Positions 7,044 through 51,884 of a DNA stretch of 64,000 bases are shown here, in pieces. Both the position numbers and the translations under genes were made by a program. Position 1 is the first letter of the stretch. Each line of letters starts with the position of its first letter. The notes beneath the pieces were generated by a model. It was not told where the DNA came from. It did not search any database and saw only the letters and a list, made by a program, of their open reading frames with translations. This DNA comes from Candidatus Fermentibacterota bacterium (GTDB lineage Bacteria > Fermentibacterota > Fermentibacteria > Fermentibacterales > JCC-6): the NCBI GenBank assembly GCA_014728175.1, contig WJMA01000003.1, forward strand, positions 66,191 through 130,190. The letters run 5' to 3'.

Positions 7044-7045
7044 TG

Positions 7046-7906: not shown

Positions 7907-7984
7907 GTTCCCCCCAGGGTTGAGATCAAACGCACCAACCCGGTAAATATAGGCAACGACCCGAATACCGAAAGGAAGCCGCGG

Positions 7985-14223: not shown

Positions 14224-14309
14224 CCCGGCTTCCTTCATACCAGGTGAACATTGTTTTATCAGCGTAAATCTCCCTGTGAAAGGTTGGCCGCATCCGCGGC
14301 CCTTCTCCG

Positions 14310-16262: not shown

Positions 16263-16994
16263 ATGAGACAGGTCGGTGCGCTATCCGAGAGCCTGGAAGA
16301 CTACCTGGAAACCATATACAACCTCCAGGTGGAGAACGGAGCCGCGAAGGTAAGCGACATCGCGGATGCGCGTGGGGTCAGCATGGCCAGCGTCTGCCAA
16401 GCGCTCAAGCGTTTGGACCGGGAGGGCCTGGTCGACTACTCGGCCCGGGAGTCGCTGGAGCTCACTCCCGAGGGCCGCCGCCTGGCCCAGAAGATATCAT
16501 CCAGACACAGGTTCGTTTTCCGCTTCCTCTCCCACATCCTGGGAGTGGACAAAGATGTGGCGGAGAAAGACGCCTGCTCCCTGGAGCACCACCTTAGCAA
16601 GGAGACCCTCTCCCATCTGGTCGCCTTCACCCAGTTCGCCGAGAGCGGGTTCTGCGGCGAGGAGAAGATCATGGACTCCTACCGCCGTTCCGAGAGAACC
16701 GGCCAGGTCCGGGGCCCCCGTAGGCGTCCCCGCCGGAGACAAGGCAGACCCCGACACCGGGAGGGTCCCTTCCTGTCGGAGCTGAAACCGGGCAGGAGGG
16801 CCAGGATAATGCACCTCCACGCCTCCTGTGCCATTCGCCAGAGGCTGGTGGACATGGGTCTTCTGCCGGGGGTCGAGGTGGAGATGATCAGGGTGGCTCC
16901 CCTGGGTGATCCCGTGGAGGTGAAGATCAGGGACCTGTCGCTGTCTCTTCGTAAGAGCGAGGCGGCGGCGATCGAGGTGGAACCTCTGCCTTGA
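16263..16994 (+). CDS. DtxR/MntR-family metal-dependent transcriptional regulator fused to a C-terminal FeoA (SH3-like) domain via an Arg-rich linker
   Basis: N-terminal LEDYLETIY...VSDIA HTH + dimerisation region of DtxR family; linker GPRRRPRRRQGRPRHR; C-terminal FeoA-like segment (LSELKPGRRARIMHLH...GDPVEVKIRD). Confidence 0.7.
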   Translation: MRQVGALSESLEDYLETIYNLQVENGAAKVSDIADARGVSMASVCQALKRLDREGLVDYSARESLELTPEGRRLAQKISSRHRFVFRFLSHILGVDKDVAEKDACSLEHHLSKETLSHLVAFTQFAESGFCGEEKIMDSYRRSERTGQVRGPRRRPRRRQGRPRHREGPFLSELKPGRRARIMHLHASCAIRQRLVDMGLLPGVEVEMIRVAPLGDPVEVKIRDLSLSLRKSEAAAIEVEPLP

Positions 16995-19159
16995 AGCGCA
17001 TCAGAGTCGCCCTTGCCGGCAATCCCAACGTAGGCAAGACCTCGGTATTCAACCAGCTTACCAGATCAAGCCAACACGTCGGCAACTATCCCGGCGTCAC
17101 CGTGGAGACCATTTCCGGCAGTTGCAGGTACGGCGACTACGAGCTGGACTTCGTCGACCTTCCCGGCACCTACAGCCTCACCGCTCACTCCGAGGACGAG
17201 ATGGAGGCTCGGAGGATACTTCTGTACAACCCTCCCGACGTGGTCGTTCACGTGGTCGACGCAACCGGTCTGGCCAGGAATCTCTACCTTACGGTCCAGC
17301 TTATGGAGCTCCGCATGGGCCTGGTGGTGGCTCTGAACATGAGCGACGAGGCCGAGGAAAAGGGTACGATGCCCGACATCGACCTCCTCTCGGAAGTGAT
17401 GGGGGTGGACATCGTCCCCACTATCGGTCACCGGGGAACCGGCATAGACGAGCTTAAAAGCTCCATAGTGAGTTGCTACGAGTCCGGGGACAGCCCCAGG
17501 AGGATAAGCTACGGAAGAGACATAGACCGCTCCATCGCTCCCATATCCAGCATCCTGGCCGAGGCCGGAGATCTGTTCTTCCCGCCCAGATACGCCGCCG
17601 CGAAGCTCCTGGAGAACGACGAAGAGGTGAGGTCCACCCTGGAGGAGGAGCTGCCCCGGAACGTCTTCGCGGAGGTCAGTCGGATGGCCGACGGGGAGAG
17701 GGAGAGGCTGGAGGACCTCTTCGGTGACGATCTCGCGGTGGTCATGGCCGAGCAGCGGCACGGGATAGCTTCCGGGGCCGCCGAGGAGGCCACCATGGAC
17801 TCCAGGGCCAGATCCACCGGAGCGGATCTCACCCGGGAGATAGACAACGTCCTGCTGAGTAGAGTACTGGGGCTGCCCATATTCGGCCTGGCCATATACC
17901 TGACCTTCTGGCTCACGTTCACCGTCGGCGCTCCCTTCTCCTCGCTTCTGGAGTACCTCTTCGGCCAACTGGGAGGTCTGGTGGAGTCCCTGATAGCCCC
18001 GGGCTTGCTCAGATCGCTGCTGGTAGACGGAGTGATCGCCGGGGTGGGGGGGGTGCTGGTCTTCGTGCCCAACATCGCGCTTCTGTTCCTGGTAATATCC
18101 GTCATGGAGGATACCGGCTACATGGCCCGGGCCGCCTTCCTTATGGACCGGTTCATGCACAGGATAGGGCTGCACGGGCAGAGCTTCATCCCCATGCTGA
18201 TAGGCTTCGGTTGCACCGTCCCGGCCATCATGGCCACCAGGGTGCTCAACGACCGAAGGGACCGTCTGGTAACCATGATGGTTCTGCCCCTCATGTCCTG
18301 CAGCGCCAGGCTTCCGATCTATCTGCTGGTAGCGGGCGCCTTCTTCCCCGACCACAGAGCGCTCTCCCTGTTGATCATATATCTGGTGGGCATCCTTTTG
18401 GCGGTGGGCCTGGCCAAGCTGATGAGGGTATCCGTAATGAAGGGCGAGAACTCCCCCTTCGTCATGGAGCTTCCCCCGTATCGGATACCCACCTTCAGGG
18501 GCCTCTTCAGCCACGTATGGTTACGGGTAAGGCACTACCTGAGAAAGGCGGGAACGGTCATCCTGGCCTTCTCGGTGCTCCTCTGGCTGGCCAGCTCCTT
18601 CCCGGTGCCCGACAGCTACGCCGTGGACGAGATGCTCCGGTCCGGCCGTCTGGCCCCCGCCCGGCCCGGAGAGGCGGGAACCGTGGAGGCCCTGGATCTG
18701 GAGCGGTCGACGGAGGTCAGTGGGACCATATCCAGCCCCGAGATAACAGCGGCCAGGAAGGCCCAGGGGATAGAGACATCCCTGGCCGGCAGGACGGGAC
18801 ACCTGATAGAGCCTCTGCTTAAGCCCGCGGGCCTGGACTGGAGGATAGGAACCGCTCTGATAGGCGCCCTGGGCGCAAAGGAGCTATTCGTATCCCAGCT
18901 GAGCATACTCTACTCCATGGGAGGGTCCGAGCGGGGAACCGAGAGCCTGAGGGAGGTCATGCGAAGGCGCTACTCACCCTACACCGGGATATCGATAGCC
19001 TTCTTCATCCTCATCATGGCCCCCTGCATAGCCACCCTGGCGGTGGTGCGCAAGGAGACCGGCAGCTGGGCGTGGGCGCTGGGTCAGTTCGTCGGCCTCA
19101 CTCTGTTGGCCTACCTCGTATCCCTGGCCTTCTACCAGATATCCAGGCTTTTCGCATGA
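16991..19159 (+). CDS. feoB: ferrous iron transporter B
   Basis: 722 aa; N-terminal G-domain (GNPNVGKTS, DLPG), two gate-motif membrane halves. Confidence 0.9.
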   Translation: MKRIRVALAGNPNVGKTSVFNQLTRSSQHVGNYPGVTVETISGSCRYGDYELDFVDLPGTYSLTAHSEDEMEARRILLYNPPDVVVHVVDATGLARNLYLTVQLMELRMGLVVALNMSDEAEEKGTMPDIDLLSEVMGVDIVPTIGHRGTGIDELKSSIVSCYESGDSPRRISYGRDIDRSIAPISSILAEAGDLFFPPRYAAAKLLENDEEVRSTLEEELPRNVFAEVSRMADGERERLEDLFGDDLAVVMAEQRHGIASGAAEEATMDSRARSTGADLTREIDNVLLSRVLGLPIFGLAIYLTFWLTFTVGAPFSSLLEYLFGQLGGLVESLIAPGLLRSLLVDGVIAGVGGVLVFVPNIALLFLVISVMEDTGYMARAAFLMDRFMHRIGLHGQSFIPMLIGFGCTVPAIMATRVLNDRRDRLVTMMVLPLMSCSARLPIYLLVAGAFFPDHRALSLLIIYLVGILLAVGLAKLMRVSVMKGENSPFVMELPPYRIPTFRGLFSHVWLRVRHYLRKAGTVILAFSVLLWLASSFPVPDSYAVDEMLRSGRLAPARPGEAGTVEALDLERSTEVSGTISSPEITAARKAQGIETSLAGRTGHLIEPLLKPAGLDWRIGTALIGALGAKELFVSQLSILYSMGGSERGTESLREVMRRRYSPYTGISIAFFILIMAPCIATLAVVRKETGSWAWALGQFVGLTLLAYLVSLAFYQISRLFA

Positions 19160-24338: not shown

Positions 24339-25739
24339 CTAACCGTCGGCCCAGGTGTCCTTGGACCAGTCGAACCGCTCTCCCACCGACCCTCTGCCCA
24401 GGGTCTCCATGGCCGCGTACTCACCCATCTCGATCGAATGATCCATGTTGTTGTACCTGAACAGGCCCTGTCTTCCGCAGGTGACCGAGCCTTCCAGCTC
24501 CTCCATGGCCCGCAGCACTTCGCTCAAAGGATCGGAGTAACCCTTCCTGTAGATGGGATAGGCATGGGCCTGCCTGGAGATGGTGTGATCGATCACCTCG
24601 TCCGCCCGCAGCAATCCCAGCCTCTCGCCCCCCGTCACCGCCGCCTCCACCAGCCGGCGGTCGCCGTTCCACAGGTCGTCGTTCTCTTGGCAGCTGAACT
24701 CGAACACGGCCTGAAAACCGCCCTCGGGAGACATCCCGGGATCGAAGTTCTCCGGGAAGCTTATCCGGTTGAAGAGGTACCTGTCCTCCGATGCGTATAT
24801 CCAATGGTCTTCGACCGGAATCTCCGCGTCCACCCGGAGAGCCACGAATACCACGGCCCTGTAGAGAAGCTGCTCCGCCGACCTTTCCAAACCCTCCGGC
24901 AACACGTCTCCCAGCAGACGAACGTACTCGGGGAGGGGAATGGTGCTCACCACCCTGTCCGCCCTGAGTTGTTCGCCGGCGGTATGGATGACGAACGAGC
25001 CCTGTCCTCCGGTAATCCTCCGGGGGACCGTGCGATAATGGATCGCTCCTCCCATGTCCCCCACCCTCTCGGCCAGGACTTCGGCTATGCGGCCGATTCC
25101 TCTCCGGGGGTAATGGAAGGTGCTTACCAGGCTTCTTATCTTGCCCGAGCTGGGCAGCAGGGTCTCTCTCAGCAGACCGCTCAGGCTGGGAACCGTTATC
25201 CTCTGGCTGGCCCAGTCTACGGACAGTTGGTGGGGAGCGAAACCCCACAGCTTGGCCGTATAGGGCCGGAAATATAAGTCGTATAGCTTATGGCCGAACC
25301 TCTTGACCACCCAGTCCTCGAAGCTTTCCTCCTTCCTGGGGGCCACAATGTTGCCTAGCTTCTCGGCCATATAGCTAAAGACCATAGCCGCGCCCTGGCT
25401 CAAAGGCATTCGCCTCAGCACGTCCCCGAACGACAGTGGGTACCGGAAGTATCTGTCCAGGAGCCTTATCCTGCTCTTGCGCTCCAGCTGCATCAGCTCG
25501 TCCGGAAGAAGGTCTCTCACCCTTTCCAGGATCCAGTCCTCCTGGGTGTGGAACCTGTGCGGGCCGTGGTCGAACCGAAAGCCGTTCTCCGCGCAGGTGG
25601 AAGCCAGGCCGCCGGGGCCGGGCTCCTTCTCCAGCACGGTCACCTCGGCTCCCTCGGCGCACAGCCGCCGGGCCGCGGCCAGACCGGTCAGGCCGGCACC
25701 CAACACCACCACCCGGGGAGCGTCTGTCTCCCTACTCAT
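24339..25739 (-). CDS. FAD-dependent oxidoreductase (amine oxidase/protoporphyrinogen oxidase-like superfamily)
   Basis: N-terminal VVVLGAGLTGLAAA dinucleotide-binding motif and GLAS...GFRFDHGPH; overlaps upstream 5'-nucleotidase gene by 8 bp. Confidence 0.6.
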   Translation of the reverse strand: MSRETDAPRVVVLGAGLTGLAAARRLCAEGAEVTVLEKEPGPGGLASTCAENGFRFDHGPHRFHTQEDWILERVRDLLPDELMQLERKSRIRLLDRYFRYPLSFGDVLRRMPLSQGAAMVFSYMAEKLGNIVAPRKEESFEDWVVKRFGHKLYDLYFRPYTAKLWGFAPHQLSVDWASQRITVPSLSGLLRETLLPSSGKIRSLVSTFHYPRRGIGRIAEVLAERVGDMGGAIHYRTVPRRITGGQGSFVIHTAGEQLRADRVVSTIPLPEYVRLLGDVLPEGLERSAEQLLYRAVVFVALRVDAEIPVEDHWIYASEDRYLFNRISFPENFDPGMSPEGGFQAVFEFSCQENDDLWNGDRRLVEAAVTGGERLGLLRADEVIDHTISRQAHAYPIYRKGYSDPLSEVLRAMEELEGSVTCGRQGLFRYNNMDHSIEMGEYAAMETLGRGSVGERFDWSKDTWADG

Positions 25740-27339
25740 CCTTCCAGATTATCCTCATCCGATCGTCGGCCCTAACCGGGCTGTGCTCCCGTACGTACTC
25801 TACGACTGCCTTCAGCAGCGTAACACCCGTGTAGCGTCCGGTATGCTCCAGCATCACCTCGTAGCCTATGTTGCCCGAAGCCAGGTATCCGGTGGTAACC
25901 AGCTCGTACATGCTGTCCGGATGAACGGGCTCTCCTCCGACCAGCAGCTCTTCGGTCTTCTGGCCGTCGGGCATCGACTGGTTCCTCACCGCATGGACGC
26001 CCGATATCTCCATATCGCGTCTTCTACCGGCCATGCCCGCCTCCAGCACCTCCACCAGCTCCTCCCCGGTAAGCTCCAACACGTACAGGTCCTCCTGGAA
26101 AGGAATGGCCTGGTAGATTATACGAGGGGTAATGGGGCCCCGGGGAATGGCGGCCCTTATGCCCCCCCTGTTCATCAGAGCCACGTCTGCGCCGGTGCGC
26201 CAGGCCATGGCGTCCGCCACCAGCCTTCCCAGGGGATGTTCCGCCGGGCCCCTGGGAATCTCCTCCTCGGCCTCTCCCACCACCTCGTCCATGCCGGCCT
26301 CCGCCAGCCCGCGGAAACCTTCTATAAGCTCCGTAGCCGCGGGGTCGGGCCAGAACTCGTCGTGGAAGAGGCTGATGTACTCCTCCCCGTACGGAAGGTC
26401 GTAACCGACGAGGGTCTGGGTCTCGGTGTCCAGGGCCAGACGAATGTGTCCGATGCCCGTTCCGTTGGCGTACCCCTGGACCACTATGGTGTGGTTCACA
26501 GGGTTTATCCAGGGCTCGGCGTAGCCTATGTGAATATGACCGCTTACGATGACGTCGATGCCCGGCAGCACGGTGCTCAGCTCTACGTTGTTCAGGGCCC
26601 ACTCTTTGGCGTAGCCAGAGTCGCTTTCCCAGGATCTCAGAACCGATTCCAGGTACCTGTCCGGATCCGGAGGTTGACCCAGGTGGGAGACCAGCACCAC
26701 CACATCGGCTCCTTCCTCCCTGGCCCGATCCATCGCTCTACGGACGGTCTGTACCTCGTTGCCGAAGAGATAGCCCTCCAGCAGCGCGGGATCCACCAGG
26801 CCGTAGGTGTCCGGGGTGTTCACTCCCACGAAGGCCACCTCCACACCTTCCACGTCGCGTATCACGTACGGTTCGACCGGCCGGGGGATGCTTCCGGTCT
26901 CCGTCTGCAGGAAGTTGCAGCAAACCACGGAGAAGTCGGCCGTCCGGGCCAGCTCGACGGCGTTCTCCGCCCCGTCGTCGAAGTCGTGGTTGCCGAGGGT
27001 CATGATGTCGTAGCCCACGAAGTTCATCCACTCCACGACCAGACGGCCGGAGTCGTAATTGCCGACCGGCGTTCCCTGGTAGATGTCGCCGGCGTCTATC
27101 ATAAGGCAGTGCTCACCGCTCTCCCGGCACCTCTCACGCACCTGATCGACGTAGGCGGATATGTACGCTCCTCCCCCCATCATGGGGGGGAAGTTGGGGT
27201 TAATGAAGGAGGCCGAGGTGGGAGCTATGCCTCCATGTATATCATTGGTATGTAATATGTTAAGATATACAGTCTCCGCCGCCGGTTGAGCGGTGGCCAA
27301 AAGCAGGGCAACGAAGAGCAGGAACCGGCGTTTGGTCAC
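25732..27339 (-). CDS. bifunctional metallophosphatase/5'-nucleotidase (UshA family), secreted
   Basis: signal peptide; NDIHGG, GNHDFD metallophosphatase motifs + C-terminal 5'-nucleotidase substrate domain; GTG start at 27339 overlapping upstream stop (GTGA). Confidence 0.8.
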   Translation of the reverse strand: MTKRRFLLFVALLLATAQPAAETVYLNILHTNDIHGGIAPTSASFINPNFPPMMGGGAYISAYVDQVRERCRESGEHCLMIDAGDIYQGTPVGNYDSGRLVVEWMNFVGYDIMTLGNHDFDDGAENAVELARTADFSVVCCNFLQTETGSIPRPVEPYVIRDVEGVEVAFVGVNTPDTYGLVDPALLEGYLFGNEVQTVRRAMDRAREEGADVVVLVSHLGQPPDPDRYLESVLRSWESDSGYAKEWALNNVELSTVLPGIDVIVSGHIHIGYAEPWINPVNHTIVVQGYANGTGIGHIRLALDTETQTLVGYDLPYGEEYISLFHDEFWPDPAATELIEGFRGLAEAGMDEVVGEAEEEIPRGPAEHPLGRLVADAMAWRTGADVALMNRGGIRAAIPRGPITPRIIYQAIPFQEDLYVLELTGEELVEVLEAGMAGRRRDMEISGVHAVRNQSMPDGQKTEELLVGGEPVHPDSMYELVTTGYLASGNIGYEVMLEHTGRYTGVTLLKAVVEYVREHSPVRADDRMRIIWKDE

Positions 27340-28523
27340 AGCTCGAACCTCCGACCGATGGACAGCAGAACGGTGGTCGAGCTCTCCTCCACCACCAGGC
27401 TGTCGCCGGGGTCGAAGGAAACCATGTCCGGAACCTCCACCTGTCTCCATCTGCCTGGGCTGAAGCTGCCGCCCACGTCCAACGAGTAGTCACCCAGCCG
27501 GAAGCCCAGGCCCAGGGTGAAGGCCATCCTGTCCAGAGCCCGGGATATCGGAGAGCTGCGGTAGCTGAAGCCGAACCTGCCCACGGGCCCGCCGGGAAGG
27601 TCGTTCTCCACGCCCGCAGACATTCCCCATGCGTCCCGGTCGTACATGTCCGCGCCCTCCCGCTCCGCATCGCTTCTGGCACTGTAGTAACACTCCCCGG
27701 TGAAAACCGTCCGGAGCGCGTTCCCCGGCTCGTACACGGCCCCGGCGTGGAACACGGGGGGGAGGCTGACGCTGGCCTGCTCGTCTCCCGTCAGCTCGTA
27801 GGAAAGACTGTAATCCATTCCCGCGGATATCGCGACCCTTCCGGCGCGGTACAGGGCCGAGGCCCTGGCGCTGGCTCCGCTGACATCGGTGTCGGTTACC
27901 TGCAGGACGTCGTCCGCGGTGGGGTCCACGTAGCTCACCACCCAGCGGGAGGTTCGATTGCCGAACAGGTATCCGGCCCCCAGGCCCACCAGCAACCTCT
28001 CCGAGGGGGCGAAGCAGGCGGCCAGAGCCAACTCCGAGGCCCTCCCGCTTACCTCCAGGCGCTCCCTGGCCGTCTCCACGTAACTCTCGTCCATCACCAT
28101 TCTGTCGTAGTCGTAGCAGAAGCTGTAGGGACGGTACAAGCCGGCGGTTATGGAAACGTTGTTCGGTATTCCCACCGCCCCGGAGCCGGTGGCGGACACT
28201 CCGCCGGGAAACGTCGAGATATGCCGGTTGAACGCTTCCTCGGACTCCCCGATGCTGCTGCCGAACTCGTCGTAGACCTTCCGCAGCCTCTTCTCCATGG
28301 TCAGTCTGGTGCCTCCCGAAACCTCCACCAGCAGCCCCGGGCCCAGCAGCCCGGATAGGGCGGGATTCCTGAGCGCCCCGGTCGGGGTCAGCTCTACGAA
28401 CCCCGACTCTCCCATCGAGATGCCCCGGGCGGAGGTGGAGGGGCATGGAATGCCCATGTCCAGAACGGAGGGAAGGCTTGCCGGGATCGTTGCGAATGCC
28501 AATACGGTCAACAAGAGTGACAT
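27336..28523 (-). CDS. hypothetical outer-membrane protein, possibly FadL/PorV-like beta-barrel
   Basis: 395 aa, signal peptide, beta-rich with periodic aromatic/Gly residues, C-terminal ...GRRFEL; family assignment speculative. Confidence 0.35.
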   Translation of the reverse strand: MSLLLTVLAFATIPASLPSVLDMGIPCPSTSARGISMGESGFVELTPTGALRNPALSGLLGPGLLVEVSGGTRLTMEKRLRKVYDEFGSSIGESEEAFNRHISTFPGGVSATGSGAVGIPNNVSITAGLYRPYSFCYDYDRMVMDESYVETARERLEVSGRASELALAACFAPSERLLVGLGAGYLFGNRTSRWVVSYVDPTADDVLQVTDTDVSGASARASALYRAGRVAISAGMDYSLSYELTGDEQASVSLPPVFHAGAVYEPGNALRTVFTGECYYSARSDAEREGADMYDRDAWGMSAGVENDLPGGPVGRFGFSYRSSPISRALDRMAFTLGLGFRLGDYSLDVGGSFSPGRWRQVEVPDMVSFDPGDSLVVEESSTTVLLSIGRRFEL

Positions 28524-28535
28524 ATCTCCTCCAGG

Positions 28536-30974
28536 CTACCAGCGAAAGTCCAGCTGGCAGCGGATTCCATAACCCGTGACATGATCTCCGAAGTCCCTGA
28601 CCGCGGAGTCGGGGTCCCCCTGGTAGTGGAACTGGTCCTCCGGGTCGGGACGGTAAAGCCCGGTCCGGGGATAGAAGGTGTCCTTCCTCAGCACCCTGAA
28701 CCTGAGCTGGAGATTGTCCGACAGCGCGTTCTTGAAGGTCAGGTAGAACTTGGTCCCATCTCCGTCCAGGAAATCTATTCCCGTATCCTCGAACTCCCAC
28801 TGGCTCATCCCGTCGGTGGTCCATAGGGTCGTTCCTCCCAGAACGGACAGCCGGTCGCTGAAGTCGTGCTCCCACCGGGCGGAGAGATACCCACCGGAGA
28901 GCAGCCTGTCGTCTCCGTAGAGAGGGTTTGGGGTCAACTCGACCATTCCCAGCCTGAGGCGCACGTCGAAGTAATCGTGGGCGAAGGGGAGGAAGAAGGA
29001 GCGCAGCGTGTACTCGTGCGTTCTGGACGTCGTGGGTACCACATCGTGCATCTTGGTCTTCGACTGATACTTGTACTTCAGACGGAAGCGCACCGGGAAG
29101 TCCGCCCTGTACTCCACCTCTCCCTGGAACCTGTGGTTGTCGAAGTCGTAGGGCAACGAGCGCCAAACGTCCAGGTAGAGCTTGGGGAAGACGACCTGGT
29201 CGCTCACCTGGAACCTGCTTTCCAGATAGACCCCCTCCTCGGGCTTGGGGGTGGGCCATTCCTGCAGCTGCGAGACCAGGGGGTCGGTCAGGTAGTAGGG
29301 CTTCTCGAAGACCGTATCGTCGTAGCGCTTCTGCTCCGAAAACCCCCGGCAGTAGGGATTGGAGTAGCCCAGATCGTAGTGCCTGGCCGCGGCGGTCAGG
29401 TAGAAGTAGTCGTTCTGCCACCTGGAGGCGATCAGAAAGGCCGACGCCCCGTCGTCCTGTCTGGACAGCTCGCCTTCCAGGCTCATGGGCCCCACCACGG
29501 TCTGCCCGCTTACCCCCAAAAGGGTCATTCCGTCGGTGGCCTCCAGGGAGCGGTACTCCGGGCAGTCCCAGTAGTAGCCGTCGTTGGGAACGTCCAGGTA
29601 ATCGGCGTCCGGAAACAGGGAGTCGTCGTAGGCGATGCTCATGCCTCCCAGACCCACCGCGGTACCGGTGGGCAGTATCCCTCCCAGGTCCGCGAAGCAG
29701 TAGCCCCCGTAGGTGGTTTCGATAAGCGCGTCGGTGTAGCGGCCGCACCTGTACTGCATGGCGGCGGGAACGTTGGGCACACCGTTCTGGCTGAGTATCG
29801 CGTCCCGGCTGGAGCTGGACAGGAAGCCGTATCCCAGGAATGGACCCTGCCTGGCCTCTACCGCGGCACCGGTGAGGGCGAACTGCCGGGTGGAGGTCAG
29901 GTCCGGGTGCAGACCCCAGGGGCGTTCCAGCCGTCTGTACATAAGCTCGCCGGAGTTGTCCACCAGCAGGCCCTGACCCAGGGCCAGCCTGTAGTTGCCC
30001 AGCACCACCTGACGCAGGGGGCCCAGATGGTGGAGGGACACGAAGGCCTTGGCCTGGTCGAACCGATTACTCACCTCGCCCATGTCCATGTCCCGGAAGA
30101 GGTCGTGGCCGGCGGTGGAAAGCCTGCCCCTGGCCAGCCGTACCCCGCCCCGCATCCGGTCCCCCAGGCCCCCGGAAACCCGGTGGGTGAAGCCGGTTAC
30201 CCCCCGGGCCGAAAGCAGCTCCTCGCGGCTGGCCTGCAGCTGTTCGTAGAGAAGGGCGCTGTCCACGGGGCTGCCGGAGTAGTCGGCGCCTCCGGTGGAC
30301 ATCTCGAAAAGCGCCGACCCGAGGTTGTCCAGGGCCGCGTCGTATCCCTCCTCGTCGGAGTCCCTTCCCGCTCCTCCCTCCACGATCATCCGGTAGGAAC
30401 CGAACAGCTTCAGGGAGGATAGATCCAGCTCCCGGGTGGATACGAAGTCACGCATGTTCCGGTAACCGTAATAGCTCAGGTTCTCCACGCTCCTCAGGGA
30501 ACGTATGCTGGACACCGGACCGATGCTCCGCAGACGCCGCTCCACCGCGGCGGCGTCCACCAGGCTCACCCGGTCCAGCGACCTCAGGTCCCACGAGGTG
30601 GCTTCGTTCACCGGCAGGGGCCTGACCAGGAGGTTCTCCCACTCGGCGACCGCCGCGTCCCCGGGGCTATCCTCGGAAGCCAGCTTCTCCATCACGTCCA
30701 GAACCTCCGGAGGCAGCCGGTCCGGCTCGGGGGGAACCAGGATGCATTGTCTTCTCAGCGCCTCCAGCTCGGAGGGACCTATTCCCTCCACTTCGGTCAG
30801 CTGGTAGATGTTCTCCAGCCCACCCATCAGATAGATGTAGCGATGGAGCGAGTCGGCCTGTTCTCCGCTCACCCCCTCCAGTGCTCCTATCTCTTCCGGC
30901 GAGGCGCTGTTCAGATCCAGCCTGTCCGCGGGCCAGAGAAACACGGCCAGAGCGAGGAGCAGGCTAGAAGCCAT
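28536..30974 (-). CDS. large secreted/outer-membrane protein with N-terminal ComEA-like double helix-hairpin-helix DNA-binding domain fused to about 700-aa beta-rich domain
   Basis: signal peptide; LDLNSASPEEIGALEGVSGEQADSL...LTEVEGIGPSELEAL matches the ComEA HhH-HhH signature; rest rich in Y/G/D/R with C-terminal ...QLDFRW. Confidence 0.55.
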   Translation of the reverse strand: MASSLLLALAVFLWPADRLDLNSASPEEIGALEGVSGEQADSLHRYIYLMGGLENIYQLTEVEGIGPSELEALRRQCILVPPEPDRLPPEVLDVMEKLASEDSPGDAAVAEWENLLVRPLPVNEATSWDLRSLDRVSLVDAAAVERRLRSIGPVSSIRSLRSVENLSYYGYRNMRDFVSTRELDLSSLKLFGSYRMIVEGGAGRDSDEEGYDAALDNLGSALFEMSTGGADYSGSPVDSALLYEQLQASREELLSARGVTGFTHRVSGGLGDRMRGGVRLARGRLSTAGHDLFRDMDMGEVSNRFDQAKAFVSLHHLGPLRQVVLGNYRLALGQGLLVDNSGELMYRRLERPWGLHPDLTSTRQFALTGAAVEARQGPFLGYGFLSSSSRDAILSQNGVPNVPAAMQYRCGRYTDALIETTYGGYCFADLGGILPTGTAVGLGGMSIAYDDSLFPDADYLDVPNDGYYWDCPEYRSLEATDGMTLLGVSGQTVVGPMSLEGELSRQDDGASAFLIASRWQNDYFYLTAAARHYDLGYSNPYCRGFSEQKRYDDTVFEKPYYLTDPLVSQLQEWPTPKPEEGVYLESRFQVSDQVVFPKLYLDVWRSLPYDFDNHRFQGEVEYRADFPVRFRLKYKYQSKTKMHDVVPTTSRTHEYTLRSFFLPFAHDYFDVRLRLGMVELTPNPLYGDDRLLSGGYLSARWEHDFSDRLSVLGGTTLWTTDGMSQWEFEDTGIDFLDGDGTKFYLTFKNALSDNLQLRFRVLRKDTFYPRTGLYRPDPEDQFHYQGDPDSAVRDFGDHVTGYGIRCQLDFRW

Positions 30975-31795: not shown

Positions 31796-32821
31796 TCAAT
31801 CCAGCCGCTCCGCTATCACCACGGTCTCCGTGGTGGTCATCCTGCCGCCGTCGGGTCCCACCGCCTGCAGCAGCAACACGTAGGGTCCCACCGGAAGCCA
31901 CTCATCGTTGTCGTCCCTTCCGTCCCACATCATCACGTCCCCCCCGTACCTGGAGTCTACCAGCTGGGCGACGCTCCTTCCCGCCCTGTCGAAAACGGTC
32001 AGGCTGAATCTGCAGTCGTCCGGGCCACCGTACTCCAGATGCATGCTCTCTCCCGCTCTGGGGCTGAAGGGATTGTCCCACACCGTCAGATGGAACTGCC
32101 CCGGGACCGACGGCGAGTAGACCTGCAGGTCCGACTGGCTGCGGGGAAGCAACTGATAGCCGGTCTCGTAGGGCGGCTCGCTGTCGTACTGGCCTCCCAG
32201 GCCGTATATGTACAGACGAACCCCGGGTTCTATCCCCGAGACGTCTATTCCCGTACCCTCGTCGACCCTTATCGACACCGCCGCCTGGCCGTTCCAGACC
32301 TCGAAGTTGTAGCCGCCCCCGGCCTGGGAGGGATGGCTGGCGACCGTGACCCACTGCTGCGTGGATCTGTCCCCCAGGGCCAGCAGAAGGCCCTCCAGAG
32401 ACTCGCTGACATCCTGGTGGATGACCATCTGGCTGGGCTCCGGCTCCCCCGGCGAGCCCAGATATTCCAGGTCGTACTCGCTGTCAGGCTTTATCTCCGT
32501 AAGACCGTTGTACTGAGTTATCTCCCCCGTGATTCTCAGGCTGTCTCCGGTATCGATGCTGAAGCCAGGGACGGCGCTCGAGTACACGTTTATTCCCGCG
32601 GTGGCGTCCTGCACGTAGAAACTGAGGCCACTACCGCCGGAGAAAAGGGTTCCGTTGCAGGTGGCGGTCGCCTCGATGGTCACCACCTCACCCATACGGT
32701 CGGGCAGGCCATCGCCATCGGCGTCCACTCTGGCCTCGGCCACGGTCAGCAACGGCTGGGCCGATATGCTTCCGGCCATAAGCAGCACGGCAGCCGCCGG
32801 CAGGGTTCTTACCATCCGCAC
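31796..32821 (-). CDS. secreted protein with N-terminal OB-fold of the extracellular-nuclease (ExeM/NucH/Xds-type) DNA-binding kind and C-terminal FlgD-like Ig/T9SS-type sorting domain; no catalytic nuclease domain
   Basis: signal peptide; motif GEVVTIEATAT...GLSFYVQDATAGINVY...GDSLRITGEITQYNGLTEI; C-terminal 90 aa (FHLTVWDNPFSP...LLLQAVGPDGG) resembles FlgD Ig-like CTDs. Confidence 0.45.
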   Translation of the reverse strand: MRMVRTLPAAAVLLMAGSISAQPLLTVAEARVDADGDGLPDRMGEVVTIEATATCNGTLFSGGSGLSFYVQDATAGINVYSSAVPGFSIDTGDSLRITGEITQYNGLTEIKPDSEYDLEYLGSPGEPEPSQMVIHQDVSESLEGLLLALGDRSTQQWVTVASHPSQAGGGYNFEVWNGQAAVSIRVDEGTGIDVSGIEPGVRLYIYGLGGQYDSEPPYETGYQLLPRSQSDLQVYSPSVPGQFHLTVWDNPFSPRAGESMHLEYGGPDDCRFSLTVFDRAGRSVAQLVDSRYGGDVMMWDGRDDNDEWLPVGPYVLLLQAVGPDGGRMTTTETVVIAERLD

Positions 32822-32840: not shown

Positions 32841-34277
32841 TCATCTTTCCGTCTCCATCTCCTCGTCGGCCAGCTCCGCCGCCCTAGCCAGGGCTTCCTC
32901 CGGACCCATACGCCCGTAGAGGGCTATCTCCACCGCCTCGGAGAGGAACTCCCTACCGTTGTACCATGCGCTGATCTGGGGCTCGAACCTGGCGTAATCC
33001 AGCTGGGCGACAACCTCCTCCAATCCCCGGCTCTCGGATAGCCTGCGCCGGGCGACCGGTTGCCGCAGCGCGGTGCTGGACACGGGAAGGTAGCCGGTTC
33101 CGGCGAACCATCTGGCCTGCTGCTCGGGCTCGGTGAACCACTTGACGAACTCCCAGGCGGCCTCCGTCCGGTCCGGGCCATGATCCGCGAACAACACTAC
33201 GTTGGTCCCGGCTATGAAAACCGCCCTCCGGCGATTCGATGGAAGGGGAGCCACGGCTATCTCGAAAGTGCTCAGACCGCTCTCGGCACGCCTTTGCATG
33301 TCCCGCTGCATGAAGGAAAGCGATACCACCGACCCCTGAACCATTGCCACCCGTCCCTCCGTGAACTCCCGCTGATGCTCGTACCCGGAGGACAGATACG
33401 CCGTACCGTCCCGATGCAACAGTTCCACCAGGAAGCCTAGAGCCTCCACTCCCTCCGTCTGCGCGAATGCGGTGCTCCGACCGTCCGGTGAGAGCAGTGT
33501 ACCTCCGTTCTGGGCCAGTAGGTTCTCGAACATCCAAACGCTGACCGTAAAGGCCGTTCCCCACCTGTCGCAGTCGTCCAGGAGGTCTCCGTCCCCGTTG
33601 CCGTCGTAAGAAAGGGTTCTCAGCAGCTCTCTATGCTGCTGCCAGGTGGAGGGAGGGGCCAGCCCCAGGCTGTCGAACAGGTCCGCATTGTAGTACAGGG
33701 CGGGGACGCTTTTGTTGAACGGAAAGCTGTAGACCCGTTCCCCGAAGGTGTTGTTCTTACGGAATACCTCGTAGAAGCGTGCCCAATCGCTCCGGGAATA
33801 TTCCCGGTCCTGGGCCATCATGGAGTCCAGGGGTACCAGCACCCCGCCGTCTATGAGCTGAGCCGTCCAGGTCTCGTAGGCCTGGGCCAGAACCGGCGGT
33901 TCTCCGGCCATGACGCTGGCCATAATCTTCTGGCTGAGCGCCCTGTAGTTGCCCATGGAAACGGCGACCACCTCGATACCCGGATGGGTGGCGTTGAACT
34001 CGGCCACCAGCGAGTCCTCAAGCAGCTCGCCGAGCGGCCCCCCCATGGCGTGCCAGAATACAACCCTGACCGTCTGCCCGGAGGTTCGGCCACCATCCGG
34101 GCGGCAGGACGGCAGAAACGGGGCCGCCAGAATCAGGAAAAGCAAGAAGCGGGACAGAGACTCCTCCCGAGATTCGTGCAGCAGAGAAAACGGAGCGTGA
34201 ATCGACCCCGGTAAATATACTCCCTCCCGATCCACCCGTAAGGTCTGAAGAGGCCGGATCCGATTGGAGATTGACAC
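32841..34277 (-). CDS. ABC transporter substrate-binding protein, family 1 (sugar-type), orphan (no adjacent permease/ATPase)
   Basis: 478 aa; lipoprotein-like signal (FLPSC); overall SBP-1 pattern; start codon uncertain. Confidence 0.6.
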   Translation of the reverse strand: MSISNRIRPLQTLRVDREGVYLPGSIHAPFSLLHESREESLSRFLLFLILAAPFLPSCRPDGGRTSGQTVRVVFWHAMGGPLGELLEDSLVAEFNATHPGIEVVAVSMGNYRALSQKIMASVMAGEPPVLAQAYETWTAQLIDGGVLVPLDSMMAQDREYSRSDWARFYEVFRKNNTFGERVYSFPFNKSVPALYYNADLFDSLGLAPPSTWQQHRELLRTLSYDGNGDGDLLDDCDRWGTAFTVSVWMFENLLAQNGGTLLSPDGRSTAFAQTEGVEALGFLVELLHRDGTAYLSSGYEHQREFTEGRVAMVQGSVVSLSFMQRDMQRRAESGLSTFEIAVAPLPSNRRRAVFIAGTNVVLFADHGPDRTEAAWEFVKWFTEPEQQARWFAGTGYLPVSSTALRQPVARRRLSESRGLEEVVAQLDYARFEPQISAWYNGREFLSEAVEIALYGRMGPEEALARAAELADEEMETER

Positions 34278-39517: not shown

Positions 39518-41365
39518 CTAGGGAACGTAGTTGAAATTGACAGTTGCTCTCCAATAGCTTTCCCGGTCTTCCTCCGAGTAGAAGGTTCTGGTCAGGGACA
39601 GGGTGAGGTTTCCCCTTGAGAGGGACATGTTGGTGTACAGGCCCACGTGATGGAGATGTTCGGAAGTAGAGGAGGCCAATCCGGAGGGGTAGTTCCTGCT
39701 GTTGTACTCCCAGCTGTAGCTGGGGGTCAGGCCCACCCGCCCCGGAAGGTGAAAACCTCCGAACAGGGTCAAAGAGCTCCTGAGGGTTTCCTCGGATCTG
39801 GTGAACATGGATTGCTCGAAGCCACCCTGGTCCTGGTAGCGGAAATCGTGGGATACGCCGAGACGAGTGGAGTCCGCCGATAGCCGGTCAAGGGAGAAGC
39901 TGGATTCCACGCGCCTGAACAGTAGGTTGTTGGAGGCCGAGACGTCCGGGAACAGATAGGTTGTGTAGTCGGCGCTGAACTTCACCTTGTGCTCCAGGTC
40001 CCAGTTCCTTCCCAGCTCGAAGGTGGCACCCGGCTCAACGCTGTAGATGGAAGAGGTCTTGCTGTTAGCAGACTGCTCCGCCATCAGATATATGGTCTCC
40101 CTCCTCTCCCCGGTGAGGGCCGTGCTCAACGTCAGCCTGCTGCTGACGGGCAACTCCGCGTTCAGCATCAGTGTCTCCCTCAACTCGTCCCGGTCGGTGT
40201 TGTCCCGGTACTCAACCCCGATGCCGCTCTCCCAGGTTCCGAAGGTATCGTGCCTGTAGAGCTCGACCGTCCTCTTGAACTCTACCTTGGCCTCCCCCGG
40301 CTTATAGACCACGCTCGCCGACAGGCTCCTGTTGTCCGAGTTGTTCCAGATGTCGAACAGGTTCTCGGTTCCAGGCCCCTGACGCTTGCGGTCGCTGCGG
40401 GAGAGCCTCCGGGAAATCCCGAAGGTGATGTATGCGTTCTCCATGATGTCGTACCTGATCGAGGAGTTTATTCCCCTGCTCACATCCTCCCGGTTCCTGG
40501 CATCCCTCTGCTGAGCGGTTGAGTCCTCGCGCTCCCAGTACCTCTGCGTCTGGTTCCAGTTGGTTCCCATCGATAACGACAGGGCGGGCAGCAGCTCGGG
40601 AAGGGTGAATGAGGCGGAGTGTTTCCAGGACCGCTGCCGCTGACTCTGGGCCGAGTCGTGGTAGATGGTGAAGAACTTGGAGGCTCCCACCTGGTAGGTG
40701 ATGAAGGCATCGGGCAGCAGCTCGGGGAGCTTGTAGTTAACCCTGCCGGTCAGGTTATCGCTTCCGTAGTCGGTCTCGTCGCCCAGGGTACGTTCCTCTC
40801 CGAAGCTAACGCTGGTGGAGAACCTGGGAGTGAAGCTCTTGTTGACGGAGATGGACACGTCATGAACCCCTCCCTGGTTACGACCGGAGACCATAGAGTC
40901 GTCGGAAATAGTCTGGTAGCGGAGAAGATGGGTGCCCAGACCGACGTCCAGGCTCAACCATTCCAGGGCGGAGCATCGGATTTGGCCGGTGACGGTCGTT
41001 TCCGCCTCGTCCCGGATTATCTCGCCGAAACGTTCCTCGGTATGCAGCCTTCTCTCCAGGCTGGTGGCCAGCTCCAGGTCCTCCCCGGGCTTGTAGCTCA
41101 CCCAGGCTTCTCCCATGCGGGTGTCCCGGAAGCGGTGTAGCGCGTCGCTGCGGTTGGCCGTGAAGTCCGCGTCCAGATTCAGGTCCACCTTGTCAGAAAG
41201 GGCCTGGACCAGGGAAAAGCTGTTGTAAAGCTCGCTGGTCTGCTTGTACTGGGAGTACGAGTTGTCGTAGCTTAGATTGTAAGCCATCGACAGGGATAGA
41301 CCCAGCAGACATACCACGCCCGCCAGCCTCAACCGGATACCTCCTCGGTTAGCCGCAGGAAGCAC
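39518..41365 (-). CDS. large hypothetical outer-membrane beta-barrel-like protein
   Basis: 615 aa, signal peptide, extremely S/T/Y/R-rich amphipathic beta pattern; no family recognised. Confidence 0.4.
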   Translation of the reverse strand: MLPAANRGGIRLRLAGVVCLLGLSLSMAYNLSYDNSYSQYKQTSELYNSFSLVQALSDKVDLNLDADFTANRSDALHRFRDTRMGEAWVSYKPGEDLELATSLERRLHTEERFGEIIRDEAETTVTGQIRCSALEWLSLDVGLGTHLLRYQTISDDSMVSGRNQGGVHDVSISVNKSFTPRFSTSVSFGEERTLGDETDYGSDNLTGRVNYKLPELLPDAFITYQVGASKFFTIYHDSAQSQRQRSWKHSASFTLPELLPALSLSMGTNWNQTQRYWEREDSTAQQRDARNREDVSRGINSSIRYDIMENAYITFGISRRLSRSDRKRQGPGTENLFDIWNNSDNRSLSASVVYKPGEAKVEFKRTVELYRHDTFGTWESGIGVEYRDNTDRDELRETLMLNAELPVSSRLTLSTALTGERRETIYLMAEQSANSKTSSIYSVEPGATFELGRNWDLEHKVKFSADYTTYLFPDVSASNNLLFRRVESSFSLDRLSADSTRLGVSHDFRYQDQGGFEQSMFTRSEETLRSSLTLFGGFHLPGRVGLTPSYSWEYNSRNYPSGLASSTSEHLHHVGLYTNMSLSRGNLTLSLTRTFYSEEDRESYWRATVNFNYVP

Positions 41366-42150: not shown

Positions 42151-43521
42151 CTAGCCCCTGGCCCTGAACCGCAGACCTTTGCTACCGGCCAGGGCCTCAC
42201 AGGCCTTCATGCTGACACCGCATCCCCTGACGGCCGTCAGCTCCAGGCCGCAGCCGATCTCCCGGCACAGGTCTATGAATCTCTGCAGGTAATGCCAGGC
42301 GTTCTTCGCCGAAGGACGGGATATCCTGCGGTAGCTCTCCTCGTCCGGTGCGTTCAGGCTCACGCTCACCCTGTCGAACAGGGACACCATGCGTCGGACC
42401 CTCTCCTCGGGAATTCTACTCAGGGCCAGGCCGTTCGTGTTCAGCCTGACCGGGATCCCCCTCGCCGAAAGAGCCTCCGCCAGCTCGGACAGGAGCCCCA
42501 GTCTCATGGTCGGCTCTCCGTAGCCGCAGAAGACGATCTCCTCGAACCAATCCGGTCTCACCAGGGCGAGGCCCGACCTAAGCCTATCCGGATCGGGCTC
42601 GCTGTCGTGTTGGAGGAAGTAGCCGTCGATCCCATCCTGGTAGTTCCTGATGCAGAACGTGCAGTCGTTGTCGCATCTACCGGTCAGGTTCACGTACATC
42701 TTTCCGTCCAGCACGTAGAAGAGGTCCGTCCTCCTATGCTCGCCCACCCCGAAGGCCCTGCAGGAGTTATCCAGAAGCAGAGAGGCGGTTCCCGCCGGAT
42801 CGGCGCCCATGGCCCGGGCAACGACCTGCAGTACCAGCTCCAGGTTGGCCGGTTGGTTTCTGCTTCCCCTCCGAGGCTCGGGGGACAGGAAGGGGGAATC
42901 GGTCTCTATCAGCATCCGCTCCGGCGGCAGTCTTCCAGCCAGCTCTCTCAGGCTCCGGTTGGAGCGGTACGTCACGGGGCCGGCGAGACCTACGTAGCAT
43001 CCCCGCCGGGCGGCTTCCACGGCCAGCTTTACCGGACCGGTGTAGCAGTGCAGAACCACCGGGACCGGGTCGCAGGAGCCTATGGCGTCCACCACCTCGG
43101 CCTCCGCTGCGCGGGAATGGGCCACCAGGGTCCGGCCCAGAGCCCGGGCCAGCTCCAGGTGCCTTCGAAGCCATTCCCGCTGTTTCGCGGGGGGAGAGCC
43201 CTTCCTGTACAGGTCCATGCCGGTCTCTCCAATCGCTACCACCCGGGGCCTTAGGGCGGTGCGGGCGATGGCTTCCATACCTTCGTCGCCTACGGCCTCT
43301 ATTTCATTGGGGTGCACGCCAACGGCAGCCCATAGCCCTTCGTAGACCGTCGCCATGCGAGCGGCCTTGATGCTGCTTGGCGGGTCGGTCCCCGGTACCA
43401 GTACGTCTCGGACTCCGGCCCGGCGCGCTCTCCGCAAAACCTCTTCCAGATCGCGGTCGAAGGAGTCGAAGCACAGATGCGCATGGGTATCGAACAGACG
43501 GTACCCGAAGCTGTCCGACAA
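42151..43521 (-). CDS. fusion protein: N-terminal TatD-family metal-dependent hydrolase + C-terminal radical-SAM domain
   Basis: FDTHAHL TatD start and HxH/Asp pattern in first about 260 aa; then YVNLTGRCDNDCTFC radical-SAM CxxxCxxC cluster in last about 190 aa. Confidence 0.65.
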   Translation of the reverse strand: MSDSFGYRLFDTHAHLCFDSFDRDLEEVLRRARRAGVRDVLVPGTDPPSSIKAARMATVYEGLWAAVGVHPNEIEAVGDEGMEAIARTALRPRVVAIGETGMDLYRKGSPPAKQREWLRRHLELARALGRTLVAHSRAAEAEVVDAIGSCDPVPVVLHCYTGPVKLAVEAARRGCYVGLAGPVTYRSNRSLRELAGRLPPERMLIETDSPFLSPEPRRGSRNQPANLELVLQVVARAMGADPAGTASLLLDNSCRAFGVGEHRRTDLFYVLDGKMYVNLTGRCDNDCTFCIRNYQDGIDGYFLQHDSEPDPDRLRSGLALVRPDWFEEIVFCGYGEPTMRLGLLSELAEALSARGIPVRLNTNGLALSRIPEERVRRMVSLFDRVSVSLNAPDEESYRRISRPSAKNAWHYLQRFIDLCREIGCGLELTAVRGCGVSMKACEALAGSKGLRFRARG

Positions 43522-51228: not shown

Positions 51229-51884
51229 GGACCTTCTCCCTCCGCGCCCAGGAACTCTATCCTAAGTACGGCCGGGGTGGTTCTTCCCGGGGGCGGAGGG
51301 GGGATATTGGCCATGGCCAGCGCATGCTCCACCGCCCGGTCGAACGCACCGGTCCCGCTCTTTCTTATGGTGGTGACCTGGACCGAACCGTCGGGACGTA
51401 CGACTAGCTCTATCCGGTAGGATTCCGAGGGAGTTACGGAGGTCCGGAAGTGCCTTCTTACCGCATTGAACACCCTGGACTCGTAGGTACCCGGGCCGGG
51501 AGCCTGGCCCTGGACGTTCCCCTGATGGTCCACGGCGCTGAACTCGCTCGCGGTCTCAGAAGGATCCTCATGGGAGCCTTGCTCCTCGGGCGAATCCTCT
51601 TCCTGTACCGGGGGCTCCTCTTCCGCCTCGGATTCCGGCTGTACGGGGGATTCCTCCTCGGTCTCCACCTGCTCCTCGGGCTGGGTTTCCTCTACAGGGT
51701 CGGGGCGGGGCTCTTCCTGCCCATCGGACACGGCGGTCGCGGGTTGCTGCAGAGTTACCATCTCCACCGCTATCGCGTTTCCGGTCATTGGAGTCGGCGT
51801 CCACTCCTCACCGGACAGCACAAACCCAACCCCCACCACCAGTACATGAAGGGCTACCGAGACCAGAAGGTATCTGGGATTCAT
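51225..51884 (-). CDS. tolA: TolA/TonB-like energy-transducer (TM anchor, Glu/Pro-rich linker, TonB-C-like domain)
   Basis: domain pattern and position between tolR and tolB. Confidence 0.55.
   Translation of the reverse strand: MNPRYLLVSVALHVLVVGVGFVLSGEEWTPTPMTGNAIAVEMVTLQQPATAVSDGQEEPRPDPVEETQPEEQVETEEESPVQPESEAEEEPPVQEEDSPEEQGSHEDPSETASEFSAVDHQGNVQGQAPGPGTYESRVFNAVRRHFRTSVTPSESYRIELVVRPDGSVQVTTIRKSGTGAFDRAVEHALAMANIPPPPPGRTTPAVLRIEFLGAEGEGP

Follow-up and report, generated by a model that had tools for sequence, protein, structure and literature searches.

A 64,000-nucleotide stretch of the genome of a Candidatus Fermentibacterota bacterium (assembly GCA_014728175.1, contig WJMA01000003.1, positions 66,191 to 130,190 of the forward strand; hereafter the window) encodes, at 31796..32821 on the minus strand, what is very probably a non-catalytic, exported ligand-binding protein that combines a DUF5689 unit with a C-terminal domain (CTD) of the sorting type and acts together with the beta-barrel proteins encoded next to it. 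A more specific role, in which the protein would serve an outer-membrane apparatus for the capture and import of extracellular nucleic acid as its non-catalytic receptor subunit, appears to be an evenly balanced proposition.

Domain organization of the DUF5689-CTD protein

The open reading frame (ORF) comprises 341 codons when counted from its GTG and has a GC3 of 0.81 vs a GC2 of 0.47, a pattern shared by the neighboring genes. Translation probably begins with the third codon, an ATG (32815), because a GGAG-like Shine-Dalgarno sequence lies directly 5' of this codon and because a public protein from a Candidatus Fermentibacteria metagenome-assembled genome (MAG), GF402_00765, which is 100% identical to the ORF product, consists of 339 amino acids (aa). 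A preliminary description of this ORF quoted two motifs, GLSFYVQDATAGINVY (residues 65-80) and GDSLRITGEITQYNGLTEI (residues 92-110). Within these motifs, D72, T74, G76, N78, G92, G99, Y104, N105, G106, L107 and E109 are invariant in 43 homologs, so that, given also the coding signal and the identity to GF402_00765, the ORF with both motifs is real. The N-terminus MRMVRTLPAAAVLLMAGSISAQP contains no lipobox cysteine, that is, the feature of lipoprotein (SPII) anchoring is absent, and, as far as can be read from its sequence, MRMVRTLPAAAVLLMAGSISA followed by QP is an ordinary Sec signal peptide.

An AlphaFold2 model built on a 43-sequence alignment (pLDDT 90.4, pTM 0.78) comprises a signal helix followed by two beta-barrels (residues ~45-125 and ~145-235), with a beta-sandwich at the C-terminus (244-336). 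The top matches of this model in a Foldseek search against the PDB are tandem-OB domains, namely, the HIN-200 domains of p204, MNDA, p202, IFI16 and AIM2 as well as Teb1 AB (E-values 7e-6 to 2e-3); the PorU C-terminal domain is matched as well (4e-4). At the sequence level, the nucleic-acid-binding OB family PF01336 is detected with an E-value of 0.021 in this protein and in 14 of the 43 family members (best E-value 9e-8). The ExeM_NucH model NF033681 aligns at 22 bits (E-value 6.6e-5), only over profile positions 30-109 of 546 and against a cut-off of 300 bits. The first barrel (OB1) carries both motifs of the preliminary description and a calcium-loop-like motif, DxDGDGxPD, at residues 33-41, which is conserved where the unit begins. 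At E<=1, Pfam and NCBIfam yield no catalytic family for this protein, nor is there any among the 43 family members.

The two barrels appear to form a single recurrent module. The OB1 and OB2 hidden Markov models (HMMs) find the pair twice in relatives from WOR-3 (540-578 aa), and therefore the pair was taken as the unit and its profile was searched against 1.84 billion cluster representatives. This search retrieved 10,923 proteins at E<=1e-3, 930 of these at E<=1e-30; the best matches are proteins of 500-3,300 aa, and the best 150 contain one to six copies of the unit each, nearly all of them two to six. In a Pfam scan of 45 relatives sampled from these matches, DUF5689 (PF18942) and PF01336 are each detected in 35 proteins, the former with E-values of up to 2e-52 and 5 copies, followed by Por_Secre_tail (26 of 45), FlgD_ig (14 of 45) and LTD (7 of 45); CBM_56, CBM_6 or Calx-beta domains are found in some, and a nuclease domain of any kind in none of the 45. 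PF18942 does not match the window protein at E<=0.1 and is recognized in 4 of the 43 family members (best E-value 6.8e-10). Because the unit profile retrieves relatives of which 35 of 45 match PF18942, the residues of OB1 and OB2 are, as judged by profile similarity, probably one copy of the DUF5689 unit, of which the likeness to ExeM/NucH is only a faint and incomplete reflection. The preliminary description, which had proposed a single N-terminal OB domain of the ExeM/NucH/Xds type that is followed by no EEP or other catalytic domain, is thus borne out with respect to the OB-type fold, supported by the PF01336 and NF033681 matches and by the HIN and Teb1 tandem-OB matches, and with respect to the absence of EEP, nuclease and other catalytic domains. 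It missed the second barrel, and the ExeM-type proteins, their weak likeness notwithstanding, are not the closest relatives of the 220-aa region, which as a whole corresponds to one DUF5689 unit. Membership in ExeM/NucH itself was rejected given the lack of a catalytic domain and the score of 22 bits vs the cut-off of 300.

The region downstream of the unit, for which a FlgD-like Ig CTD of about 90 aa, of the kind used by FCB-group bacteria, had been suggested, indeed contains such a domain, with a length of ~100 aa. In the whole-protein scan, residues ~241-341 match FlgD_ig (E-value 0.0018) and CHU_C (0.0029); searched on its own, the CTD yields E-values of 5e-4 for CHU_C and 7e-4 for FlgD_ig, neither of which reaches 27 bits, and no match to Por_Secre_tail. 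The curated CTD models used for comparison were PF18962/TIGR04183 for type A and PF13585/TIGR04131 for type B. Among the 43 family members, FlgD_ig is found in 41 (best E-value 9.6e-9), CHU_C in 32 and Por_Secre_tail in 4, and the family profile matches the FlgD Ig domain in the PDB at 2.6e-5 and, weakly, PorU. In related genomes, the CTD HMM further recognizes the final ~100 residues of unrelated proteins, among them proteins with FG-GAP, alpha/beta-hydrolase-like and LTD domains; these matches always end 2-26 residues before the stop, and several of the proteins share nothing else. In remote DUF5689 relatives, the same terminal slot holds either the FlgD_ig-like flavor or a textbook type-A CTD of the type IX secretion system (T9SS). 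The HMM of the window family finds textbook type-A CTDs at 26-36 bits, close relatives with the same CTD subtype match Por_Secre_tail at 4.9e-5 and FlgD_ig at 4.6e-9, and single C-termini cross-match Por_Secre_tail, FlgD_ig and CHU_C. Because of this placement at the extreme C-terminus of unrelated proteins and the cross-matches to canonical CTDs, the behavior of the domain is that of a T9SS-CTD superfamily sorting domain. Within the DUF5689 family, the CTDs constitute their own subtype, ending with VV(I/V)(A/G)T.L. A correlation of this subtype with adjacency to a PorV-like gene was considered and rejected: the subtype tracks the DUF5689 family, although it is shared by one LTD protein described below (locus L009).

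The occurrence of the same domain class at the very C-terminus of unrelated secreted proteins, the canonical Por_Secre_tail at this position in 26 of the 45 relatives, the canonical type-A CTD proteins that are encoded in two Aegiribacteria loci and the adjacent gene of the PorV/PorQ family all speak against a periplasmic protein in which the Ig-like CTD would be a structural or docking domain, for example, for one of the neighboring 276-aa and 812-aa barrels, and which would be a partner of the solute-binding protein (SBP) and the 5'-nucleotidase in the periplasm. We consider this alternative quite unlikely. It nevertheless draws on the fact that no T9SS core gene (SprA/Sov, PorK/L/M/N or GldK-N, PorU, PorV) was detected among the ~40 window proteins that were scanned against Pfam or NCBIfam, that no literature report of a T9SS (type IX secretion) in Fermentibacterota was found, that the CTD matches of the window protein are below the Pfam thresholds, that the CTDs of the family form a subtype of their own, and that the tight coupling to the SBP gene, with a 4-bp overlap in WOR-3, suggests a shared compartment.

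The architecture of the protein is not new in kind, because DUF5689 unit(s) with a T9SS-type CTD are present in 40 of the 45 sampled relatives, all uncharacterized. The unit-CTD combination is already common; the part for which no description was found is the conserved cluster that surrounds the gene.

The conserved gene cluster

The DUF5689-CTD gene is embedded in a tightly packed run of minus-strand genes, with gaps of 19, 1, -11, 12, ~-4 and -8 bp, in the order lipoprotein SBP, DUF5689-CTD protein, PorV/PorQ-like barrel, 812-aa HhH barrel, 395-aa barrel and 5'-nucleotidase (Table 1). The PorV/PorQ-family gene directly adjoins the DUF5689-CTD gene. NF033709 (PorV/PorQ) matches the 276-aa window protein at 26 bits (E-value 5e-6), below its cut-off of 90 bits, and is found in 21 of the 22 members of the 276-aa family (best E-value 1.2e-22); the best PDB match of the family profile is PorV (6h3i, 8.7e-5). 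On this sequence evidence, the window barrel is a distant relative of PorV/PorQ and is not called a member. The 395-aa barrel-like protein matches BamG, a Bacteroidota family, with an E-value of 4e-8, far below the cut-off, and contains a PorV/FadL-style N-terminal motif, ARGISMGESG.

The 812-aa protein combines ComEA-type HhH domains with a large barrel. HhH_3 is detected with an E-value of 3e-11, TIGR00426 and TIGR01259 match as well, and the HhH region of EEPD1 and ComEA are matched in the PDB. The barrel contains about two dozen (~24) strands, and its Foldseek matches are generic large outer-membrane barrels (ushers, SlpA, TonB-dependent transporters, AlgE) with TM-scores of ~0.3. This barrel, for which no close structural relative was seen, is conserved in Fermentibacterota and has homologs with 29-39% identity in other lineages. 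No description of a fusion of a ComEA-type HhH domain with a ~24-strand barrel was found in the literature, and no type IV pilus or secretin gene is present near the gene of the 812-aa protein.

The best PDB matches of the SBP are 7C14/7C0F (E-value 7e-39), ahead of Escherichia coli UgpB (5e-28). The 7C0F structure is that of a Thermus thermophilus protein that binds uridylyl-3'-5'-phosphoguanosine (U3G) and that falls, within the CUT1 family, into the branch that binds phosphate esters (PMC12718374, Table S5 for the ligand). There is no ABC permease gene next to the SBP gene at 32841-34277.

Table 1. Features of the DUF5689-CTD gene and of the operon in which it lies (window coordinates)
Feature	Coordinates	Strand	Evidence and remarks
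Family-1 solute-binding lipoprotein (SBP)	32841..34277	-	19 bp upstream of the DUF5689-CTD gene; conserved lipobox Cys at ORF residue 58
DUF5689-unit protein with C-terminal sorting domain, secreted	31796..32821	-	341 aa from GTG; probably 339 aa from ATG 32815
Sec (SPI-type) signal peptide, residues 1-21	32759..32821	-	Cleavage between SISA and QP, site judged by eye; read from sequence; helix 7-17 in model
OB1, residues 22-128	32438..32758	-	PF01336 at 44-114; NF033681 at 71-150; strands 46-122; invariant residues
OB2, residues 129-240, second beta-barrel	32102..32437	-	Model; ends in invariant GQY..PY..GYQLLPR..D motif
C-terminal Ig-like beta-sandwich, residues 241-341, T9SS-CTD/FlgD_ig superfamily, putative sorting/anchoring domain	31799..32101	-	Pfam, profile, model
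PorV/PorQ-family small outer-membrane beta-barrel, 276 aa	30964..31794	-	1 bp downstream of the DUF5689-CTD gene; NF033709, PDB profile match
812-aa outer-membrane protein	28536..30974	-	Signal peptide; ComEA-type HhH 18-76; second helical HhH-like region 106-175; barrel 190-811; C-terminal ..DFRW beta-signal
Putative outer-membrane beta-barrel, 395 aa	27336..28523	-	Distant BamG/PorV-type similarity
Secreted 5'-nucleotidase-family phosphoesterase (Metallophos + 5_nucleotid_C)	25732..27450	-	Signal peptide; likely start GTG 27339, overlapping the stop of the preceding gene

The order of the six genes is kept in Fermentibacter daniensis and Aegiribacteria and in nearly all of the ~59 Fermentibacterota loci with enough flanking sequence among GTDB species representatives. 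Operon conservation inside Fermentibacterota is weak evidence alone because synteny across this phylum is high; therefore, loci of other phyla were used, 21 in total (Hydrothermota, TA06, Cloacimonadota, WOR-3 and unlabeled MAGs), picked solely by similarity to the ORF at 31796-32821. In 10 of these, which include TA06, Cloacimonadota and WOR-3, the DUF5689-CTD gene is directly followed by a homolog of the 276-aa gene, with the 812-aa homolog next in the 9 whose contig extends far enough and often the 395-aa barrel too; 5 contain only an orthologous SBP gene directly upstream, and the remaining 6 neither the SBP nor the barrels. Conversely, when distant homologs of the 812-aa protein are taken as the starting point, the 276-aa gene is always upstream, and a barrel and a 5'-nucleotidase are usually downstream. 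In WOR-3 loci, an orphan SBP gene overlaps the DUF5689-CTD gene by 4 bp (L005, 3329-4582; L007, 1699-2958). No description of this conserved cluster, with its PorV/Q-like barrel, HhH-fused barrel, further barrel, nucleotidase and SBP similar to the dinucleotide binder, was found in the literature.

Outside Fermentibacterota, several other nucleic-acid genes flank the DUF5689-CTD/PorV-like/HhH-barrel clusters. These include a DHH/DHHA1 phosphoesterase (L008, 6724-8328), a 188-aa PLD-type Nuc-like protein (L089, 15110-15676), ComEC (L090, 3938-5527), and ComM/YifB homologs (L084, 10253-11788; L087, 15391-16506). No glycoside hydrolase was found in any locus examined.

In one locus (L009, 2359-4740), a 793-aa LTD protein occupies the slot of the DUF5689 gene ahead of the PorV-like/HhH-barrel/barrel/5'-nucleotidase set. 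That this LTD protein shares both the slot and the CTD subtype suggests that it is the CTD rather than the cargo that pairs with the barrels. Such an exchange of cargo, the invariable position of the PorV/Q-like and large-barrel genes directly after the cargo-CTD gene, and the weak resemblance of the 812-aa barrel to usher-type translocation pores, which are its most similar structures, would all be compatible with a self-contained mini-secretion or anchoring module (PorV-like protein plus 812-aa barrel) whose cargo has a structural role, either with extracellular DNA in a biofilm matrix or in adhesion, and none in uptake. This explanation appears very unlikely, given that the N-terminal HhH domains would have no obvious role on an exporter, that the linkage to the 5'-nucleotidase and the SBP and the ComEC, ComM and nuclease neighbors point to import and processing, and that the barrel matches are generic, with TM-scores of ~0.3.

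Ligand and proposed function

Two experimental systems connect DUF5689 with DNA. In Riemerella anatipestifer, which lacks a competence pilus, RA0C_RS04920, a protein with DUF5689 and DUF5017, and the adjacently encoded outer-membrane protein RA0C_RS04915 are essential for natural transformation (PMC8459023). In Bacteroides thetaiotaomicron, DdbD (DUF5689) is encoded beside the TonB-dependent transporter DdbC in the locus ddbABCDEF, which is required for depletion of exogenous DNA. DdbC and DdbD form a complex in AlphaFold3 predictions, and the modeled DdbD is similar to the p202 HIN domain, which binds dsDNA (PDB 4JBM) (PMC12478041). This same entry, 4jbm, is among the Foldseek matches of the AlphaFold2 model obtained here, so that, at the level of predicted structures, the HIN/p202 similarity published for DdbD is independently recovered with the window protein. 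The possibility that the 812-aa barrel is a DdbC-like TonB-dependent transporter was considered and rejected because HhH families alone match it by sequence and its fold matches are generic; TonB_dep_Rec, Plug and CarboxypepD_reg do not match any of the neighboring barrels.

The domain make-up and the gene linkage are read directly from the sequence, and from these we infer the steps of a possible mechanism. The DUF5689-CTD protein would be exported by Sec, and the CTD would then take it across the outer membrane and hold it on the cell surface, with the adjacent PorV/PorQ-like barrel as a dedicated carrier or anchor, as SprF is for SprB. The tandem-OB unit would capture extracellular DNA or RNA, possibly via bridging divalent cations, and thus play the part that has been proposed for DdbD on DdbC in Bacteroides. 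The 812-aa barrel could be the conduit. Both termini of outer-membrane barrels normally face the periplasm, and the ComEA-like HhH domains, expected to be located there, might hold or ratchet the incoming strand. In the periplasm, nucleotides and phosphate would be harvested by the 5'-nucleotidase together with the SBP, a relative of UgpB and of the dinucleotide binder; if the system serves competence, DNA might instead be handed on to ComEC. In its broadest form, the proposal that the cluster is an undescribed outer-membrane DNA route that requires neither a type IV pilus nor TonB, is common to Fermentibacterota, WOR-3, TA06 and Cloacimonadota, and uses the ComEA-like domains of the barrel to ratchet DNA into the periplasm for feeding or natural transformation, seems rather doubtful.

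Several observations weigh against the receptor role. The unit has a net charge of -23 over 219 aa (pI ~4.05; 4+4 Lys/Arg vs 18+13 Asp/Glu) and is among the most acidic products of the window, for which the median pI is 5.5. Of the 476 units found in 149 relatives, 92% are net negative, with a median of -8.6 charges per 100 aa. Acidity is a family trait of DUF5689-type units, an oddity considering the DNA ligand that has been proposed for them; HIN domains contact the DNA backbone through basic residues. The Foldseek TM-scores to HIN domains are only 0.2-0.4, every Pfam or NCBIfam match of the window protein itself is below the curated cut-offs, and its family placement derives from profile searches that link it via relatives. 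The operon includes no nuclease gene, and the SBP family is ambiguous: family-1 SBPs are mostly sugar-binding, and in 5 of the 21 loci from other phyla plus 3 further WOR-3 loci the SBP gene is the sole retained context. The lack of T9SS core genes in the window belongs here as well. Finally, DNA binding by DdbD was inferred from structure, not measured (PMC12478041).

Some of these features would be expected of a surface binder that feeds CUT1-type uptake as a SusE/F-like or CBM-like accessory and whose ligand is not nucleic acid but, for instance, a glycan, a cationic polymer or some other phosphodiester polymer. The pronounced acidity, the conserved residues of the unit, which are Tyr, Asn, Gln, Asp and Glu, not Lys/Arg, the retention of an SBP of a mostly sugar-binding family where the barrel genes are missing, the CBM_56, CBM_6 or Calx-beta domains in some relatives, and the fact that DNA binding of DdbD is a structural inference can all be accommodated in this way. 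Nevertheless, such a ligand appears unlikely considering that the closest solved relatives of the SBP bind phosphate esters (the U3G dinucleotide, glycerol-3-phosphate (G3P) and glycerophosphocholine (GPC)), that the linked barrel bears ComEA-type HhH domains, that genes for the 5'-nucleotidase, DHH, PLD-nuclease, ComEC and ComM recur around the cluster, that genetic evidence from two Bacteroidota connects DUF5689 genes with DNA uptake, and that glycoside hydrolases are missing from the loci examined. As for a nucleic acid ligand, its cation-bridged binding, for which the conserved DxDGDGxPD motif is of interest, is a speculation. The surface-displayed DNA-binding protein envisaged in the preliminary description is a candidate reading that fits the context, namely, the HhH barrel, the 5'-nucleotidase and the SBP as well as ComEC, ComM or a PLD-type nuclease near relatives, with the acidity against it.

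Other genes of the window and comparison with known systems

Outside of the operon, several further genes of the window were noted. A 456-aa ORF (42151-43521, minus strand) is a fusion of a TatD-type DNase domain (10-258) with a radical SAM domain (277-425) that is also present in Fermentibacter daniensis and Aegiribacteria (L001, L003). In a 612-aa protein (4223-6061, plus strand), the retropepsin-like Asp_protease_2 family matches twice, and a PDZ domain is located at the C-terminus. The RlmN-like radical SAM protein at 7043-9049 (plus strand) matches RlmN_N only from residue 328, so that either the N-terminus is greatly extended or the TTG start is set wrongly; its GC3 of 0.70 is lower than that of the neighbors. 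At 16263-19159 (plus strand), a DtxR-type iron-dependent repressor fused to FeoA (243 aa) is directly followed by FeoB. ORFs of 615, 277, 370 and 409 aa (39518-41365, minus strand; 13390-15422 and 51788-53017, plus strand) have no Pfam or NCBIfam match; the 615-aa ORF has counterparts of 602-608 aa at the same syntenic position in L001 and L003.

Among the known systems, T9SS cargo proteins with their cognate barrels (type-A CTD/PorV, SprB/SprF, PorZ/PorQ) share with the window protein a Sec signal and a terminal Ig-like CTD of ~100 aa with the NPF...D..GR.V...G.Y pattern, and a PorV/PorQ-family gene is located immediately downstream here. In contrast to those systems, the CTD is of a divergent, FlgD_ig-like subtype below the Pfam thresholds, the partner barrel consists of only 276 aa, and no T9SS core gene was detected among the ~40 window proteins scanned. 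The ExeM/NucH/Xds/YhcR nucleases resemble the window protein in the weak N-terminal OB match and in being secreted, some relatives contain LTD, and JGI labels some of the orthologs with the COG name 'YhcR'; however, the protein described here lacks EEP, SNase or any other catalytic domain and contains a two-barrel DUF5689 unit instead of a single OB. The 812-aa neighbor shares with ComEA, the periplasmic DNA receptor of competence, the HhH_3 domain and the expected periplasmic position of this domain, whereas its HhH is fused to a large outer-membrane barrel rather than to a membrane anchor. The HIN-200 proteins (AIM2, IFI16, p202) have the same tandem OB arrangement and yield the top structural matches, but there is no sequence similarity (8-13% identity), the TM-scores are low (see above), and the basic DNA-binding surfaces of HIN contrast with the acidic unit. 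The nearly uniform acidity of a family with a presumed DNA ligand is a puzzle.

The closest parallel is with DdbD and RA0C_RS04920, to which the window protein, as judged from its domains and gene context, is homologous and like which it would work, with neither lipoprotein anchoring nor a TonB-dependent partner. All are exported, non-enzymatic proteins, apparently of the same domain family, given that the unit profile retrieves PF18942 proteins, with a predicted tandem-OB, HIN/p202-like fold, and are encoded beside an outer-membrane barrel in loci with nucleic-acid-processing enzymes. The window protein differs in having an SPI signal and a C-terminal sorting domain instead of the SPII lipoprotein signal, in lacking DUF5017, and in being partnered by the HhH-fused barrel and the PorV/Q-like and BamG-like barrels instead of a TonB-dependent transporter; furthermore, its operon contains no nuclease gene, an SBP lipoprotein is linked to it, and it comes from a different phylum, Fermentibacterota.

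Members of this phylum are abundant in anaerobic digesters and sediments, and dedicated DNA scavenging or competence, if true, would matter for gene flow and for the cycling of nutrients and phosphorus in these habitats. How DNA traverses the outer membrane where a type IV pilus and secretin are lacking has only begun to be worked out, the known cases being the DUF5689 systems of Riemerella (2021) and Bacteroides (2025), both TonB-dependent, and the 812-aa protein is a concrete candidate for an outer-membrane DNA channel. Altogether, the locus suggests that the idea of a DUF5689 receptor extends well beyond Bacteroidota with different hardware, that is, a sorting-domain anchor in place of the lipid anchor and a barrel fused to a ComEA-type domain in place of the TonB-dependent transporter.

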